64,000 nucleotides of DNA from Candidatus Woesearchaeota archaeon. GTDB lineage: Archaea; Nanobdellota; Nanobdellia; Woesearchaeales; UBA10216. This document shows positions 49,930 to 63,774 of this stretch, one piece after another. Under the pieces are notes generated by a model that worked only from the letters and a program-made list of their open reading frames with translations, did not search any database and was not told the origin of the DNA. The stretch's first letter is position 1. The number at the start of each line of letters is the position of its first letter. The translations under genes and the position numbers were made by a program. Where the stretch lies: assembly GCA_016180195.1 (NCBI GenBank), contig JACPBS010000010.1:16687-80686 (forward strand). The letters run 5' to 3'.

Positions 49930-50175
49930 GGCGAATTGGGTTTTACAAGCAGAATACGTCTTCTAACAGTTCTTCTAATAGTGCCAACAACTGTTGGCGA
50001 TCCGGGGGATGCCCCATCCGGGGTGGCGAGAAGCTCCCAAATTGAGCAAAGCTCAATTGGGCCAAATCACGCTGAAAGCGTGATTTGGGTTTTTGCCAAA
50101 CCAAAAAAGCGTCCAACCATTGTTGTTGGCACAATCAAGGAAAACAGGCAACAATTTTTTACTCATGCTGCGGAG
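49930..50175. repeat. Structured repeat element A (candidate ncRNA or MITE), 54 nt upstream of the argS ATG
   Basis: Shares two near-identical blocks (about 70 nt and 60 nt) and the ACUCAUGCUGCGGA terminus with element B. Contains an 11-bp closing helix and an R1-like hairpin insert. Confidence 0.5.
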
Positions 50176-57487: not shown

Positions 57488-58336
57488 ATGAATCTGGATG
57501 GGATAGTTTCAGCTTATGAAGTCAGGGATAGAGTTGCGAGGCTTGGTGAATGGCCTTTCCTGAAATGCCTGGCTTACGCTGCTGCAGTTGCGAATTCATT
57601 TTCTCCCTTACTTGTTAATGCTCTGTCAAATCAGGATTATGGGCAGGCCATGATTCAGGCTGCTGTAAATGGAGCAATATCTTTCCCTGCATCATATGTT
57701 TTTTCCCGAATGCTTGTAAGGTACCGGTGTGAATCCATGGTGGATGAGCTTACAGGCCTTCCCAATCTTAGGGCGCTGAAGCAGAGAATGCCAGAGGAAC
57801 TGAGCAGGGCATATAGGCAGCAGTCTCCTGTTTTTTTCCTGCAGATGGATCTTAAGGGGCTGAAATACGTAAATAATAATTTCGGGCTTGATGCCGGAAA
57901 TCAGCTGCTTCTGGAAGCTGTTTTGCGGATGAAGGAGCAGTTGAGGCCTTACGACTTTGTCGGAAGGTGCAGTACAACCGGGGGTTCTGATGAGTTCGTG
58001 GCAGTGCTTCCTTTGGGGTCCAATTACCCTAACAATGGCTTGTCTGGCTACGCATATTCTGTTTGCGAAAGAATAGTTGATTCAGGGAGTAGATCTCCTA
58101 TCGAATTCATGAATGGCAGGTTTTCTGAGAGGATTTCCCCCGAATTCAGGTGCGGAGCCCTCGTATACAGTCCGCCGGAGAAAAATGGGCATGCATTCGA
58201 TTCATGCGGGGAATCAGCAGAGATCCTTAAACAGCTAGGAATCCTGCTTGTAGACGTGAAGAGCCGCAACGAGATCATAGTTAGGGAATTTGGCAGAAAA
58301 GAAAATGTTCATAATTTTCCAACAGGAAAATTATGA
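57488..58336 (+). CDS. GGDEF-like domain protein (degenerate GGSDEF motif) with a hydrophobic N-terminus
   Basis: DELTGLPNLRAL, FLQMDLKGLKYVNNNFGLDAGNQLL and GRCSTTGGSDEFVAVLP are collinear with diguanylate cyclase domains. Confidence 0.65.
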   Translation: MNLDGIVSAYEVRDRVARLGEWPFLKCLAYAAAVANSFSPLLVNALSNQDYGQAMIQAAVNGAISFPASYVFSRMLVRYRCESMVDELTGLPNLRALKQRMPEELSRAYRQQSPVFFLQMDLKGLKYVNNNFGLDAGNQLLLEAVLRMKEQLRPYDFVGRCSTTGGSDEFVAVLPLGSNYPNNGLSGYAYSVCERIVDSGSRSPIEFMNGRFSERISPEFRCGALVYSPPEKNGHAFDSCGESAEILKQLGILLVDVKSRNEIIVREFGRKENVHNFPTGKL

Positions 58337-58353: not shown

Positions 58354-58602
58354 TTATCTCCTCTTCTTCTTTCTTCCTCCTCGTGCCATCTTGGCTCTTG
58401 ACACGTCCCCTTTTCCATCTATGAAGTAAAGGTATCCTTTCTCCTTCTTGACGCCGGGCTTAGCGACTACTTCCTGCTTCTGTCTTCCCTTCTTTCCTCC
58501 TCCCCGGACCATCTTTGCCTTGGCCACGTTTCCTTTCTTGTCGACAAAGTACAGGTAGCCTGATTCCTTCTTAACTCCTACTTTTGCAACCTTTTCAGCC
58601 AT
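58354..58602 (-). CDS. Small basic protein made of two tandem about 35-aa repeats
   Basis: KKESGYLYFVDKKGNVAKAKMVRGG and KKEKGYLYFIDGKGDVSRAKMARGG. Lys/Arg-rich. Confidence 0.5.
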   Translation of the reverse strand: MAEKVAKVGVKKESGYLYFVDKKGNVAKAKMVRGGGKKGRQKQEVVAKPGVKKEKGYLYFIDGKGDVSRAKMARGGRKKKRR

Positions 58603-59161: not shown

Positions 59162-59396
59162 GACAGGAATATTTAAGAAATGATTATATAAAAATTTTTT
59201 TAATGCATTGGTTTTCAAAATTTTGTTGAAATTTTGCGTCGGAAAATTTTTTGCATGAAAAAAATTTCTTTTTTCCATCCTGCGTTTTGATTTTTTTCTG
59301 AAATTTCTCGTCGAGGATTTTTTTGTTTTTTAAAAAAATAGAAAGGTTTAAATATATGTTGCAGCAATAATAATGCATCAGGTGATAATTACCAAG

Positions 59397-59888
59397 ATGA
59401 GTGAAACTGAAGAAACATCTTCTGACAAACAAATTTCAAGGCGCGGAAAATTCGGCGTTAAGTTTGGTTTCGGCCCGCACCTGACCTTGGATGCATATGA
59501 CTGCGATCAGGAAAAGCTTGATGACATGAATGTTCTTTACGGGCTGTTGGATACGCTTCCGGGAAGGATAGGCATGACCAAGCTTATGCCTCCATACATA
59601 CTTTACTATGATGGAAAGGAGAAGCCTGAGGACAGGGGATTCAGCGGAGTCGTTATAATTGCTGAATCGCATATCACTATCCATACATATCCTGAGAAAA
59701 GATTCCTTACATGTGACATTTATTCATGCAAGAATTTTGATATAGACCGCACAGTCGAGTATCTTGTCAAGGCATTCTCGATAGGGAACTTCAGCAAGAG
59801 GGTGACGAACAGGGGTAGGGAGTTTCCAAAGGACATGAACATGGTTGAAAACATAGTGAACCATGACAGGTCCAAGGCAGACCAGTAG
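59397..59888 (+). CDS. Pyruvoyl-dependent decarboxylase of the SpeH/AdoMetDC family (possible arginine decarboxylase)
   Basis: SGVVIIAESHITIHTYPE matches the AdoMetDC proenzyme cleavage and active region. Confidence 0.7.
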   Translation: MSETEETSSDKQISRRGKFGVKFGFGPHLTLDAYDCDQEKLDDMNVLYGLLDTLPGRIGMTKLMPPYILYYDGKEKPEDRGFSGVVIIAESHITIHTYPEKRFLTCDIYSCKNFDIDRTVEYLVKAFSIGNFSKRVTNRGREFPKDMNMVENIVNHDRSKADQ

Positions 59889-59921
59889 TTTGTTGCTGGC
59901 AAATTTTATATATTTCTTAAC

Positions 59922-60812
59922 ATGACCAGGAAAATGAATCCTCACTTTTCATCCCCTTTTAACTTCGGGGCAATCCCCAGGCAGCTATCGGGTTATGAGA
60001 AATCCAGAATAGTGATCCTTCCTGTCCCCTATGACGCGACAACCTCGTTTAAGCCGGGTGCAAGGGATGGCCCGTCAGCTATAATCTCCGCATCCAGGAG
60101 CATGGAGCTTTTTGACTTGGAGTCTGGGAAGAACCTTTCCGAGCTCGGGATATGTACGCTTGACGAGCTCGACATTCTTGTTGATCCTGAGAAGATGGCA
60201 AGCAGGGTTTGTGAAGCAGTCATGCAGCTTTTGCATGACAAGAAGTTTGTTGTGATGCTTGGAGGGGAGCATTCTCTAAGTATAGGCTCTGTAAGGGCAT
60301 TCAAGGACTCTTATCCTGGGTTGTCAGTTCTTCATCTCGATGCTCATGCAGATCTTAGGGACGAGAACGGGGGTTCGAGATTTGATCATGGCTGTGCAGC
60401 AAGGAGGATTTCGGAAATCTGTCCTGTTGTTCAAGCGGGAATCAGGAGCCTGAGCAAGGAGGAAGCTGATTTCATCAAAGAATCCAAGCAAAGGATATTC
60501 TTTGCAAAGGACATGGCGGAGAATGATTCATGGATGGATGAGGCAATATCCGCATTGGGGGATGAAGTTTATGTTACCCTTGATCTGGATGTATTAGACC
60601 CGGGCATTATGCCTTCTGTTGGCACTCCCGAGCCCGGTGGCCTGGGATGGTATCCCCTTCTCGCTTTCCTGAAAAGGGTGTCTGGGAAAAAAAAGGTGGT
60701 TGGATTTGATGTTGTTGAGCTTTCGCCGCAGAAGAACGTGTCTTCAGATTTCCTTGCTGCGAAGCTTGTTTACAAGATGATGGGTTACTTCAATGAAAGG
60801 AATTTACACTAA
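59922..60812 (+). CDS. speB: Agmatinase (ureohydrolase family)
   Basis: GGEHSLS, DAHADLRD and TLDLDVLDP manganese-binding motifs. Confidence 0.85.
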   Translation: MTRKMNPHFSSPFNFGAIPRQLSGYEKSRIVILPVPYDATTSFKPGARDGPSAIISASRSMELFDLESGKNLSELGICTLDELDILVDPEKMASRVCEAVMQLLHDKKFVVMLGGEHSLSIGSVRAFKDSYPGLSVLHLDAHADLRDENGGSRFDHGCAARRISEICPVVQAGIRSLSKEEADFIKESKQRIFFAKDMAENDSWMDEAISALGDEVYVTLDLDVLDPGIMPSVGTPEPGGLGWYPLLAFLKRVSGKKKVVGFDVVELSPQKNVSSDFLAAKLVYKMMGYFNERNLH

Positions 60813-61545
60813 GTTCTCGGCTAAGGGCTATCTTCAGGAGTATTTCATGGAAAATGAGTATGACTATGATGATGAGAGCAAGTTTCTCCTTCAATTCTTT
60901 CATGACACCTATTCAATGATGGGGCCCAGAAAGAGGCTTTTGGAGGTGGGGGGAGGCCCTATAATATATTCGATAATCAGCGCCAGTTCTGCCGTGGATG
61001 AGATTTTCTTCTCAGATTACCTTGAGGAAAACCTTGGCGAGGTAAGGAAATGGCTTCAGAAGAAGGACGATGCATTCAACTGGGACAAGTACTTTGAGCT
61101 GGTTTTGAGGCTGGAGAAAAAAGAAGTTACCCTTGCAGCTTTGGAATCGTGCAAGGAGAGATTAAGGCGCAAGGTAAAAAAGCTGGTCCGATGTGATATA
61201 TTGAATTCAAATCCGATCGGCGATTCCGGGAAGTTTGACGTGGTTGCAAGCAATTTTTGCGTAGAGGGGGTTGTATCAACAGCCGATGACTTCAGGCAGT
61301 CCCTTGGAAACATTGTTTCTCTGCTTGGCAAGGACGGTCTTTTGGTCATGACTTTATTGAAAAATGGCACTTCGTACAAGGTCAGGGACCAGTTGTTTTC
61401 TGTTTTTCCAGTCAACGAGGCTTTCATTGAAGCCCAAGTTAAGGCCCTGGGATTCTTTAAGATAAAAATAAGGTCAATTGACATCGAAGATAAGGATCGC
61501 GGTTATTCTGGTTTTATAGGTTTGACTGCTAAGAAAAAAAATTGA
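60793..61545 (+). CDS. NNMT/PNMT/TEMT-family small-molecule N-methyltransferase
   Basis: YLQEYF, LEVGGGPIIYSIISA, DYLEENLGEVRKWLQKKDDAFNWD and RCDILNSNPIG are collinear with the nicotinamide N-methyltransferase family. Confidence 0.7.
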   Translation: MKGIYTKFSAKGYLQEYFMENEYDYDDESKFLLQFFHDTYSMMGPRKRLLEVGGGPIIYSIISASSAVDEIFFSDYLEENLGEVRKWLQKKDDAFNWDKYFELVLRLEKKEVTLAALESCKERLRRKVKKLVRCDILNSNPIGDSGKFDVVASNFCVEGVVSTADDFRQSLGNIVSLLGKDGLLVMTLLKNGTSYKVRDQLFSVFPVNEAFIEAQVKALGFFKIKIRSIDIEDKDRGYSGFIGLTAKKKN

Positions 61546-61599
61546 ATTGGTGAGCATTGCTTAAGTACAGGCATTCAGTATCTTCAACCTAATTTGACA

Positions 61600-61870
61600 A
61601 CTATTCGCAGAATAGCCTCCTCCATAAGAGCAGCCCGGTCTAACAGTTGTTCTAATAGTGCCAACAACGGTTGGCGATCCGGGGGATGCCCCATCCGGGG
61701 TGGCGAGAGCTTTTTTCGCCCAGCAAAAAAGCGTCCAACCATTGTTATTGTTGGCACAATCAAGGAAAACAGGCAAAAATTTTCAGATAAATTTCGCCTT
61801 GGGTTCAAATCCCCACCCTTTAGGTCGAAGATTGCTCCGATCAGCGGATTTTTGTTACTCATGCTGCGGA
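61600..61870. repeat. Structured repeat element B (candidate ncRNA or MITE), 53 nt upstream of a DUF2156-like gene
   Basis: Same two conserved blocks and terminus as element A. Instead of the hairpin insert it carries a tRNA T-arm-like segment GGGUUCAAAUCCCC near its 3' end. Confidence 0.5.
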
Positions 61871-61922
61871 CCCATTTTCAAAAACTTTATTAACTTGCTA
61901 TGCAATTAACTTTTTCAGGATA

Positions 61923-62843
61923 ATGGCATCAGCTTCTATGTTGGATTACGGTGTCAAAGTTATAGAACTGTCTGATAAGCCTTTTTTTGAGAGGGCTTAC
62001 AGTTCATTGAAGATGCCTCTCGCGGATCAGGACTTTTCTATGATTTACATCTGGGATAAGCTTATCAACATTAGATGGTTCCCTCTTAATGGTAATCTTT
62101 GTGCATTTGCTGATTTCGGAGGCAGTACTGTCCTGTGGGGCCCTGTTATTGGGGGTGGAAAGCTTAAGGAAACATTGAGTGCATGCTTCTCTTTGCTCGG
62201 AAAGGACGGAAGGCTTTGCTACCTGCCCGAGGAGCTTTATGATGAGTACAGCGAGCTTGAAGGCTTCAAGCTCGTCAGTCAAAGCCAGGAGTATATTTAT
62301 TCGGTGAAGGACCTTGTCGAGCTTAAGGGTGGCAGGTACGGCAAGAAAAGGAACCTAATAAACCATTTCCTTTCGAATTACCGCCCCATGGTCGAGGTTT
62401 TTGACTCGGAAAGGCATCGTAAGGGTTGCCTTGAGCTTTTGGATGTCTGGAAAAGGCAGAAGGCCGAGTCTTCATCAATAAATAAGAGCATAAGGTTCCA
62501 GTTCAATACCGAAGCGCGGCTGGCAAGGGAGACAGTCATTCTGGCAGACGAGCTGGGTCTTAAGGGGCTTGTAGTGGTTATAGATGGCAGGATCCAGGGA
62601 ATGACCTTTGGAAGCTTGCTTAATGCGGACACATGCAGCGTTATTGTTGAAAAGACCAATCTTATGTTTAAGGGTCTTCCTGAATTCATTTTTTCTGAAT
62701 TTCTGAAGAGATGCTGGGGTTCCTGTACATTTGTGAATGCGCAGGAGGATATGGGTGTCGAATATCTCAAGTCAGCCAAGATGAGCTATCATCCTGTGAG
62801 GCTGCTGAAAAGCTATATGGTGGTTAGGGATGAAGCTGATTGA
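61923..62843 (+). CDS. DUF2156 / MprF C-terminal-like protein (putative aminoacyl-tRNA-dependent transferase)
   Basis: KKRNLINHF motif and a C-terminal GNAT-like segment. Paralogue of the next gene. Confidence 0.45.
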   Translation: MASASMLDYGVKVIELSDKPFFERAYSSLKMPLADQDFSMIYIWDKLINIRWFPLNGNLCAFADFGGSTVLWGPVIGGGKLKETLSACFSLLGKDGRLCYLPEELYDEYSELEGFKLVSQSQEYIYSVKDLVELKGGRYGKKRNLINHFLSNYRPMVEVFDSERHRKGCLELLDVWKRQKAESSSINKSIRFQFNTEARLARETVILADELGLKGLVVVIDGRIQGMTFGSLLNADTCSVIVEKTNLMFKGLPEFIFSEFLKRCWGSCTFVNAQEDMGVEYLKSAKMSYHPVRLLKSYMVVRDEAD

Positions 62844-63774
62844 GGATGTGAAGGGCAATGAAAGCCTTATCACTGGCTGTATCAAGCGGCATGGCAGCTC
62901 TCCTGAACATAATTATTTTCATTACCTTGATCTTGAGGAGCCTTCCGGGAAGAATGTGTTCATAAGCTTTGGCAGCTGGAAGGGGCTTCTTGCCCAGTTT
63001 TTTCCCAGCATGAATGAATGGGTCGTTCTGGGTAATGTGCTGGCGCCGGAGAATGAAAGGCTTGATCTCCTTGTGGAGGCTGCGGGCAGGCTTTCAGCTA
63101 AGTTTGTGGTAGAATCTTCAGATGAGTTCAGGAGGGAAGCGGCGAAACGGGAAGGGGTGAGGGTTGCTGACCCGAGATTTGCGCTTTATTGGCCTGTGTT
63201 TGATTTTTCAGAATGGTCGGGTGACAGGATGGAGGGGGGTGTTTGGAAAAAGCTTAGGAACATCAGGAATCGTTTTGCCAGGATGAAAAAGTTCGAGATT
63301 GTTGATTCTGCTGATGTTCCAAGGGAGCAGCTCAATGCCCTGGTTATGGAGTGGGTTATGCGCAGGAAGCAGAAAGGCCTTGATATAAGCAGGCGTGGCA
63401 ATAATAAGGCGTTTTATCATAGATACCTCAACATGGTTGAAAGCGGATTCAAGGGTTTCGGGCATGCAAAGACTATGATTGTTGACGGAGAGCCCTGCAG
63501 TATAATGGCTGGCTGGGATATCCCGAATTCTGAGGGCGGCTATTATTCTTCTGTTGGCATTTACAGTTATAAGCATGAGGGGTTGGGTGAATTTGCCAAT
63601 ATGCACGATCTTTCGATGATCAAGGAATGTGGCTATCGTTTTGTAGATTTTGGAGGAAGCCCAAAGCCTTTGCTTGATTACAAGCTCAAGTTCAGGCCTA
63701 CTTCCATATACAAGACCTGCACGTTTGTGTTGCAAAGCCCGAATCCCTTGGTGATTGGTCCGATTCAGGTATAG
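62830..63774 (+). CDS. DUF2156 / MprF C-terminal-like protein, paralogue
   Basis: WKKLRNIRNRFARMKKFEIVD motif. Overlaps the upstream gene by 14 nt. Confidence 0.45.
   Translation: MKLIEDVKGNESLITGCIKRHGSSPEHNYFHYLDLEEPSGKNVFISFGSWKGLLAQFFPSMNEWVVLGNVLAPENERLDLLVEAAGRLSAKFVVESSDEFRREAAKREGVRVADPRFALYWPVFDFSEWSGDRMEGGVWKKLRNIRNRFARMKKFEIVDSADVPREQLNALVMEWVMRRKQKGLDISRRGNNKAFYHRYLNMVESGFKGFGHAKTMIVDGEPCSIMAGWDIPNSEGGYYSSVGIYSYKHEGLGEFANMHDLSMIKECGYRFVDFGGSPKPLLDYKLKFRPTSIYKTCTFVLQSPNPLVIGPIQV

Follow-up and report, generated by a model that had tools for sequence, protein, structure and literature searches.

A PF01234-family methyltransferase gene in a putative arginine decarboxylase-agmatinase operon of a Woesearchaeota archaeon, next to a pair of free-standing DUF2156 genes

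The locus and its gene layout

The subject of this study is a five-gene locus in a stretch of 64,000 nucleotides (hereafter the window) of contig JACPBS010000010.1, from the Candidatus Woesearchaeota assembly GCA_016180195.1. The locus encodes a SpeD-like pyruvoyl decarboxylase, an agmatinase (SpeB), a methyltransferase dependent on S-adenosylmethionine (SAM) and related to the animal nicotinamide and phenylethanolamine N-methyltransferases (NNMT and PNMT), here called MT, and two proteins of the DUF2156 type, DUF2156a and DUF2156b (Table 1). An initial annotation, made from the sequence, placed the five co-directional genes at coordinates that are reproduced by the map of open reading frames (ORFs), and proposed that together they form a cluster for the modification of small amines.

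Identical proteins, MBI2133874.1 and MBI2133876.1-78.1, are encoded on a 102-kb contig of a Candidatus Woesearchaeota metagenome-assembled genome (MAG). The start of the MT gene and the stop of the agmatinase gene overlap by 20 nt, and DUF2156a and DUF2156b by 14 nt. Loci of homologs were fetched from genomes and metagenomes, are denoted below by L-numbers and were examined for their flanking genes one by one. The candidate promoter motif in front of the decarboxylase gene, a box resembling a B recognition element (BRE) and TATA box, recurs at the equivalent place in one of these relatives, L030. The similar box in front of DUF2156a is conserved as AAAAA(C/G)TTTATTAA, ~30 nt upstream of the gene, in the window, L012 and L030; in L012 it sits after MT and in L030, which has no MT, directly after speB. 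The conservation of this BRE/TATA-like box suggests a separate transcription start for DUF2156a.

Table 1. Genes, candidate promoters and repeat at the locus (positions in the window).
Feature	Coordinates	Strand	Basis or remark
SpeD-like pyruvoyl decarboxylase	59373..59888	+	PF02675, TIGR03330; NCBI MBI2133874.1 "adenosylmethionine decarboxylase"
Agmatinase (SpeB)	59922..60812	+	PF00491 247.7 bits; TIGR01230 260.6 bits vs cut-off 174.3
NNMT/PNMT-family SAM-dependent N-methyltransferase (MT)	60793..61545	+	PF01234 145.5 bits; NCBI MBI2133876.1
DUF2156a, free-standing dupli-GNAT, LPG_synthase_C family	61923..62843	+	PF09924 103.5 bits
DUF2156b, remote DUF2156a paralog	62830..63774	+	PF09924 22.8 bits (sub-threshold), profile-profile comparison, fold
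BRE/TATA-like box AAAGGTTTAAATA, candidate speDA-speB-MT promoter	59342..59354	+	~20-30 nt 5' of decarboxylase gene
BRE/TATA-like box AAAAACTTTATTAAC, candidate separate DUF2156a promoter	61880..61894	+	~30 nt 5' of DUF2156a start
Repeat "element B"	61639..61870	.	between MT gene and DUF2156a promoter box; second copy 49962-50174

The methyltransferase

The initial annotation had described MT as collinear with animal NNMT and PNMT on the strength of peptides that are indeed present in the protein, and this assignment is well founded. MT matches PF01234 with an E-value of 2.2e-42 over profile positions 13-238 of 261, far above the gathering score of 25, and its closest solved relatives by sequence in the Protein Data Bank (PDB) are NNMT (E 1e-29), INMT and PNMT, with no other enzyme type among them. 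An AlphaFold model built with 70 homologs has a mean predicted confidence (pLDDT) of 95.3; in Foldseek it matches NNMT with template modeling (TM) scores of 0.88-0.92 and a root-mean-square deviation of about 2 Å over about 260 columns, and it predicts a class I methyltransferase fold with an N-terminal helical lid, superposable on the solved members. The SAM-binding set is intact: the motif LEVGGGP, D75, N80 and D135 align with G63, D85, N90 and D142 of NNMT. SAM-dependent methyl transfer to a nitrogen (or sulfur) atom of a small molecule is the predicted reaction.

The substrate site is less conserved than this. Residues were compared in an alignment of 87 prokaryotic MT homologs with human NNMT and PNMT, in which each expected diagnostic residue fell at its expected number. 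The residues that bind nicotinamide are D197, S201 and S213 of NNMT, and those that serve the substrate in PNMT are K57, E219 and D267, with E185 as the catalytic residue. MT keeps the scaffold residues Y13, Y17, F155, E158 and Y195, E158 being the equivalent of PNMT E185 and NNMT D167. The three nicotinamide positions are occupied by L188 (T187 in the HMMER alignment), G192 and V204, and vary across the 87 homologs; PNMT K57 and E219 are replaced by L and G, respectively, and D267 falls in a deletion. Since the substrate-binding residues of both NNMT and PNMT are replaced or deleted, MT is a member of the family and not an ortholog of the animal enzymes. H37 and D98 tend to be kept in the clade of MT proteins whose genes are linked to decarboxylases (see below) and are other residues in NNMT, PNMT and the unlinked sequences of the candidate phyla radiation (CPR), a pattern that is suggestive only.

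Among NCBIfam models, NF041360 (GntF, of guanitoxin biosynthesis) gives MT 100.1 bits against a cut-off of 60. The GntF equivalog label was nevertheless rejected as an over-annotation, as no other gnt gene accompanies MT, its neighbors are the SpeD-like decarboxylase, agmatinase and DUF2156 genes, and the host is an archaeon. The cut-off of NF041360 looks too permissive, and the wrong name could spread. In Pfam, MT matches PF01234 and generic methyltransferase domains and nothing else, and is therefore distinct from the fold derived from spermidine synthase.

MT homologs are numerous and patchily distributed. A word-indexed search with MT returned 5 clusters at E <= 1e-5, and an exhaustive HMMER search 1562 clusters at E <= 1e-3, 90 of them at E <= 1e-30. 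In a scan of one genome per species 17 MT loci were found, whose carriers include Woesearchaeota, Bathyarchaeia, other archaeal MAGs, Opitutales, Leptospirales and Desulfonema magnum, as well as Obscuribacter, Cloacimonetes, several CPR lineages and Gammaproteobacteria. The neighbor-joining tree of the homologs is star-like with bacteria and archaea intermixed, which is consistent with horizontal spread; it does not distinguish one from two acquisitions by Woesearchaeota. The earlier view that the family is unexpected in archaea therefore needs to be softened: it is rare there and not absent, being found in several Woesearchaeota, in a Bathyarchaeia MAG and in other archaeal MAGs.

The decarboxylase and the agmatinase

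Upstream of MT the initial annotation had placed a SpeH-like decarboxylase and an agmatinase, and profile matches confirm a decarboxylase of the AdoMet_dc family and an agmatinase there. The decarboxylase scores 95 bits on PF02675 (AdoMet_dc) and 79 bits on TIGR03330, just above the cut-off of 75.65. By eye it has the processing motif of the proenzyme, AES/HITIH...C (ES/H plus Cys, with processing at the slash). With a SpeD-fold proenzyme, Ser/His/Cys processing residues and an adjoining speB, the gene resembles that of a validated enzyme from Woesearchaeota: the SpeD homolog PIN80235, clustered with speB and speY, is an arginine decarboxylase with no activity on ornithine or lysine (PMC10407285). 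The protein of the window is therefore probably an arginine decarboxylase (SpeDA) rather than an AdoMet decarboxylase. A tblastn search of the 64-kb window detected no deoxyhypusine synthase (DHS)/SpeY, agmatine deiminase, N-carbamoylputrescine amidase or other decarboxylase.

Gene neighborhoods of MT homologs

The flanks of MT loci were annotated with local tblastn probes and with Pfam and NCBIfam; the contigs retrieved for two further homologs (P0008 and P0011) are too short to inform on context. In 14 of about 22 independent contexts, in bacteria and archaea, MT stands beside a decarboxylase of basic amino acids, and these decarboxylases belong to five unrelated types, SpeD-like, PvlArgDC, SpeA, LysA-like and OKR_DC. 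The context closest to that of the window is L012 (MT 62% identical), in which the SpeD-like, agmatinase, MT and DUF2156a genes follow one another in the same order. L005 has a DHS-like gene, MT, an N-carbamoylputrescine amidase-like gene (AguB), agmatine deiminase (AguA) and a SpeD-like gene, and SpeD-like genes also adjoin MT in L023, L025 and L029. In Leptospirales (L007-L011 and L015) a 484-aa OKR_DC decarboxylase is divergent from MT. The biosynthetic arginine decarboxylase SpeA (804 bits) lies directly 5' of MT in L014 (Opitutales), and in L016 (Desulfonema) a SpeA-like gene, 39% identical to that of L014 by tblastn, is found 4 kb downstream on the same strand. A fold-III LysA/ODC-like decarboxylase adjoins MT in L018 and L022, and L017 has a gene of the saccharopine dehydrogenase family upstream. 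PvlArgDC accompanies MT and a guanidinoacetate-N-methyltransferase-like gene in L118 (2814-4800); in L119 (3965-9251), an IMG/VR 'viral' contig, a gene for a 670-aa protein is followed by MT, an overlapping PvlArgDC gene, a gene for a 243-aa protein and one for a PAPS-reductase-like protein, and L120 (3962-9153) shows the same ORF layout, known from the layout alone.

Some of these sets are of interest in themselves. Those of L118-L120 may be small pathways for agmatine derivatives. L025 (4194-8309, from a Candidatus Altimarinota MAG) reads Methyltransf_25, guanylate-kinase-like, MT, ATP:guanido phosphotransferase (236 bits) and SpeD-like, which hints at a phosphorylated, methylated guanidino compound, phosphagen-like or guanitoxin-like. 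In L029 (6001-6652), where MT stands beside DHS and two SpeD-like genes, the MT gene matches in two tblastn pieces and is probably disrupted or misassembled. In a Bathyarchaeia MAG (L021, 5110-6729) and the related metagenome contigs L121-L123, MT is divergently paired with a regulator of the TrmB family and not with a decarboxylase.

The repeated association bears on one alternative, namely that MT is a horizontally acquired general methyltransferase acting on the N or S atoms of small molecules or xenobiotics, like animal INMT/TEMT, which came to its present position by accident and has no role in polyamine metabolism. The patchy distribution, the star-like tree, the absence of MT from close relatives that share the same gene block (L030, L032 and L036) and the unrelated neighbors of several homologs would all agree with it. 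It is made quite unlikely by the overlap of MT with the agmatinase stop codon and by the repeated, independent occurrence of MT next to decarboxylases from five non-homologous families, in phyla far apart: as such decarboxylases are a tiny fraction of genes, chance adjacency should be very unlikely.

Which compound would then be methylated? An enzyme that hydrolyzes agmatine is found nearby in only 3 of the 14 decarboxylase-linked contexts, so the common denominator is the product of decarboxylation, most simply agmatine; SpeA and PvlArgDC (by family definition) and SpeDA (by experiment, PMC10407285) are the types specific for arginine. MT could instead act later, on putrescine or on one of the longer polyamines, for example homospermidine or the bis-guanidino compound that precedes it, an alternative that we regard as rather doubtful. 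It is true that MT follows the agmatinase gene, and is coupled to it, in the window and L012, that a DHS/SpeY-like gene stands beside MT in L005 and L029, that the gene of L017 belongs to the family with the fold of carboxyspermidine dehydrogenase and homospermidine synthase, and that the LysA/ODC-like enzymes of L018 and L022 could give putrescine or cadaverine directly. However, 11 of the 14 linked contexts have the decarboxylase only, with no agmatinase, deiminase, SpeY or SpeE in the fetched flanks, three of the five decarboxylase types are those specific for arginine, and the homolog of a guanidino-group methyltransferase in L118 and the guanido phosphotransferase in L025 suggest that the guanidino group is retained.

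The DUF2156 pair

The initial annotation described the two downstream genes as paralogous and DUF2156-like, and for the first of them the family assignment is clear. DUF2156a exceeds by far the PF09924 gathering score of 27.5; its nearest structure is the free-standing Bacteroides protein 2HQY (E 3.7e-21, and 245 bits with the family profile), with which it aligns end to end. DUF2156b remains below this threshold when taken alone, and its score on Acetyltransf_6 (22.6 bits vs 22) is marginally above the cut-off; at the level of the family it is recovered, as many of the 93 clusters of its homologs match PF09924. The homologs of DUF2156a form 65 clusters, mostly from Woesearchaeota. Direct comparison of the two proteins by BLASTP is nearly uninformative (E = 0.023), while comparison of their family profiles with hhalign gives a probability of 94.8%, E 4.9e-8, over 270 columns with 15% identity. 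The model of DUF2156b (pLDDT 91.8) has as its best Foldseek matches the soluble domains of MprF and 2HQY (E 1e-13, TM 0.65), followed at lower ranks by tandem GNATs, the aminoacyl-tRNA-dependent peptide synthases Sbb17 and Sba18, and FemX. The sole match of its profile to PDB sequences, 2fb5 (E 0.047), was weak and was discarded as spurious. Judging by these comparisons, DUF2156a and DUF2156b are paralogs of ancient divergence and not the outcome of a recent tandem duplication.

Proteins of the DUF2156 family consist of two GNAT domains joined by a positively charged helix (PMC8913301). The DUF2156b model is predicted to have this architecture, with two alpha/beta halves joined by a Lys/Arg-rich helix at residues 137-152 (WKKLRNIRNRFARMKK, including WKKLRNIRNRF), and DUF2156a has a Lys/Arg-rich segment, GKKRNLINHF, at the same place. 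Both proteins are about 310 aa long and free-standing, and their hydropathy over 19 residues stays at or below 1.4 throughout (maximum KD19 of 1.39 in DUF2156a); the N-terminal multi-pass flippase domain that is fused in MprF is missing from both, as is a fused aminoacyl-tRNA synthetase. By analogy with their relatives, the use of aminoacyl-tRNA as acyl donor is probable. In bacteria, free-standing DUF2156 proteins of the 2HQY type are followed by, or fused to, a small GNAT domain of the acetyl-CoA type (L046, 7001-8378; P0184, P0206 and P0208), a partner that may hint at what the free-standing subfamily does.

Synteny of the polyamine and DUF2156 genes

The polyamine and DUF2156 genes are neighbors in relatives of the window also, within a wider conserved block. 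In L030 (DUF2156a 67% identical) the order is UPPS, ribulose-phosphate epimerase, a GGDEF protein, an 82-aa protein, a homolog of the 195-aa protein, SpeD-like, agmatinase, DUF2156a, DUF2156b and isoleucyl-tRNA synthetase (IleRS). L032 has the same gene set with SpeD and SpeB inverted, and L036 (41% identical) reads IleRS, DUF2156b, DUF2156a, agmatinase, SpeD-like, DHS, then small proteins, the epimerase and UPPS. The block of L030, L032 or L036 contains no MT. In L013 (2824-7692, another Woesearchaeota MAG) MT begins 13 nt past the stop of IleRS and is convergent with a homolog of DUF2156b; the expected DUF2156a and SpeB would lie beyond the end of the contig. The prediction that the neighborhood would be conserved in relatives is thus borne out for SpeDA-SpeB-DUF2156a-DUF2156b and not for MT.

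Two other members of the block deserve a comment. The GGDEF protein (window 57488-58336, + strand) matches PF00990 with 65 bits over the N-terminal half of the profile only and has GGSDEF at residue 165; it occupies the same position in L030 and L032, and proteins resembling diguanylate cyclases are unusual in archaea. The 82-aa protein (58354-58602, - strand) is very basic, has two repeats of the form KKExGYLYFxDxxGxVxxAKMxRGG and no Pfam match, and shows 83-89% identity to its counterparts in relatives, against only about 60% for the neighboring genes; the protein may bind nucleic acids or associate with the ribosome.

If the adjacency reflected function, the five genes might form one pathway leading to an amine that is both methylated and aminoacylated, or to a conjugate of an amine with a lipid, in which DUF2156a/b acylate agmatine, putrescine or the MT product with aminoacyl-tRNA as donor. 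Inversions notwithstanding, SpeDA/SpeB and DUF2156a/b do stay together in the window, L012, L030, L032 and L036, MT is found at two positions of the block (in the window and L012 it separates SpeB from DUF2156a, in L013 DUF2156b from IleRS), and the dupli-GNAT superfamily includes aminoacyl-tRNA-dependent amine acylators, of which Sbb17/Sba18 (acting with streptothrisamine) and FemX match the DUF2156b fold. The wider distribution makes this unlikely. The adjacency is confined to one clade, within a syntenic block of ~10 kb whose genes are functionally unrelated: UPPS, ribulose-phosphate epimerase, the GGDEF protein, two small proteins and IleRS are conserved there also, so that the link between polyamine and DUF2156 genes is not specific. 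At the loci L034/L035 and L038-L040, with DUF2156a 40-45% identical, no polyamine genes are nearby, and the same is true of all more distant DUF2156a loci: within about 7 kb, neither SpeDA, SpeB, DHS, MT nor DUF2156b was found at L034/L035 or at 79 of 80 metagenome DUF2156a loci (L038-L116), the remaining one, L037, being the same contig as L032. Conversely, the MT loci from outside Woesearchaeota have no DUF2156 gene in their vicinity. The DUF2156 pair is widespread in Woesearchaeota with or without MT, and mostly without it in the relatives; by the same search method there are 65 and 93 clusters of DUF2156 proteins and 5 of MT. The conserved promoter-like box in front of DUF2156a speaks against a common pathway as well. 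A related form of the proposal, a five-gene module in which DUF2156a/b acylate agmatine, putrescine or an N-methyl derivative, or attach an amine-bearing group to a scavenged host lipid, is compatible with the adjacency through three rearrangements and with the two insertion points of MT; the wider distribution again argues against it and we consider it very improbable. Overall, the case for placing the DUF2156 pair in the same amine-modification pathway is weak.

The spacer between MT and DUF2156a is also informative. It spans 377 bp (61546-61922), compared with only 43 nt in front of DUF2156a in L012 and L030, and it contains the repeat, element B, which the initial annotation had placed between the MT and DUF2156 genes. 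The two copies in the window (61639-61870 and 49962-50174) are about 215-230 nt long with blocks 93-97% identical, and the element is missing from the orthologous spacers of L012 and L030; all four short-read contigs with this MT gene (L001-L004) end inside it. Element B is therefore an insertion between the two units and does not belong to the cluster. Its features include a long-range helix (GTGCCAACAAC...GTTGTTGGCAC) and, internally, a region of hairpins that varies; the folding z-score of the minus strand is -3.27, and the copy at 61.6 kb has an extra 71 nt that include GGGTTCAAATCCCCA, which resembles the T-arm of a tRNA. Despite this, neither an Rfam family (in gathering and E-value modes) nor a tRNA (ARAGORN) was detected in the spacer, and no match to the repeat core turned up in the viral contigs scanned.

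Proposed functions of the two units

Taken together, the data are best accounted for by two units that are neighbors through lineage-specific synteny, an arginine decarboxylase-agmatinase-MT operon and a free-standing DUF2156 pair, and we consider this arrangement probable. The amine-modification cluster of the initial annotation accordingly stands for the decarboxylase, agmatinase and MT genes, on account of the 20-nt overlap, the gene order of L012 and the five decarboxylase folds, and is not supported for the DUF2156 genes, given the relatives without MT, the box of their own and the clade-limited synteny.

Unit 1 (59373-61545) would be a three-gene operon converting arginine to agmatine and this to putrescine and urea, in which MT would most likely add one or two methyl groups to the primary amino group of agmatine or putrescine; if agmatine were methylated first, agmatinase would release N-methylputrescine. 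We infer the substrate and the position of methylation from the gene context. A link of MT with the arginine/agmatine/putrescine pathway is fairly likely, and agmatine as the specific substrate is a tentative choice that falls somewhat short of an even chance. The guanidino-directed neighbors in L118 and L025, the arginine-derived substrate of GntF and the fact that SpeB enzymes accept agmatines with N-substituents (PMC13625781) fit the latter.

Unit 2 (61880-63774) would be a pair of translationally coupled genes with a promoter of their own, encoding soluble dupli-GNAT proteins that belong to the DUF2156/MprF C-terminal-domain family. By analogy with that family, the proteins may move the aminoacyl group from aminoacyl-tRNA to a hydroxyl or amine of an acceptor, most likely the head group of a membrane lipid.

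Several points weigh against the separation into two units or against the role given to MT. SpeDA/SpeB and DUF2156a/b remain adjacent through the three different arrangements of L030, L032 and L036, and the MT of L013, between DUF2156b and IleRS, is at a second position within the same syntenic block. The candidate promoter boxes are sequence motifs only. In eight contexts no polyamine gene is near MT (L019, L020, L021/L121-L123, L024/L026/L027, L028 and L013), the neighbors in L024/L026/L027 being a two-component system. To our knowledge, N-methylated agmatine or putrescine has not been reported from archaea. Finally, the decarboxylase of the window may be a genuine AdoMet decarboxylase after all: it passes TIGR03330 and keeps the Pro of an HTYPE motif, which may or may not be the Pro reported as conserved in AdoMetDC (PMC10407285).

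Significance

A literature search found no paper linking prokaryotic PF01234 proteins with polyamine metabolism, and the only polyamine N-methyltransferases that it returned were the plant enzymes derived from spermidine synthase. If the MT clade does methylate agmatine or diamines, prokaryotes would have arrived convergently at a route of their own to N-methylated polyamines, and the recently revised, agmatine-centered polyamine pathways would gain an unsuspected branch. This would also give a function to about 90 close clusters (E <= 1e-30), the 20-odd homologs examined spanning CPR bacteria, DPANN archaea, Leptospirales, Desulfonema, Opitutales and 'viral' contigs, and would flag a likely annotation error, since MT passes the cut-off of the GntF model. 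The DUF2156 pair, conserved in archaea that are thought to depend on host lipids, raises the separate question of tRNA-dependent modification in DPANN; were the five-gene module real, a DPANN archaeon would make a tRNA-dependent polyamine conjugate of a kind not known in any organism.

Comparison with known systems

The nearest named prokaryotic family to MT is GntF of cyanobacterial guanitoxin biosynthesis, with which it shares PF01234. GntF is the predicted N-methyltransferase that forms pre-guanitoxin from intermediates derived from L-arginine. Its substrate is a small cyclic guanidine, whose primary amine it N,N-dimethylates. MT differs from it in its speDA-speB context, with no gnt genes, and in its predicted substrate, linear agmatine or a diamine. 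With animal PNMT, INMT and NNMT (3ROD, 2A14, 1HNN), MT has in common the collinear full-length fold, the SAM motifs and the Tyr/Glu scaffold, whereas it lacks the nicotinamide and phenylethanolamine residues, has the clade-specific H37 and D98, is prokaryotic and stands in an operon with polyamine genes. The putrescine N-methyltransferase of plants and the spermidine N-methyltransferase of coca would share with MT the predicted chemistry, a SAM-dependent N-methylation of the primary amine of a polyamine. These plant enzymes derive from spermidine synthase (PMC10407285; PMC9894180); as they are unrelated to PF01234, any function shared with MT would be convergent.

The SpeD-like gene beside agmatinase is an arrangement already known from the SpeDA-SpeB(-SpeY) clusters of DPANN archaea and bacteria (Li et al., 2023, PMC10407285; PMC13625781), and L036 also carries a DHS/SpeY-like gene. 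The published clusters are described without a methyltransferase, while the window has MT and, within its 64 kb, no DHS/SpeY homolog. Lastly, the DUF2156 pair resembles free-standing DUF2156 proteins (2HQY and the fungal ErgS) and the C-terminal synthase domain of MprF in its PF09924 match (DUF2156a), its dupli-GNAT fold and its Lys/Arg-rich helix, and it differs from MprF in having no flippase or transmembrane domain, in consisting of two very divergent tandem paralogs and in its archaeal host.

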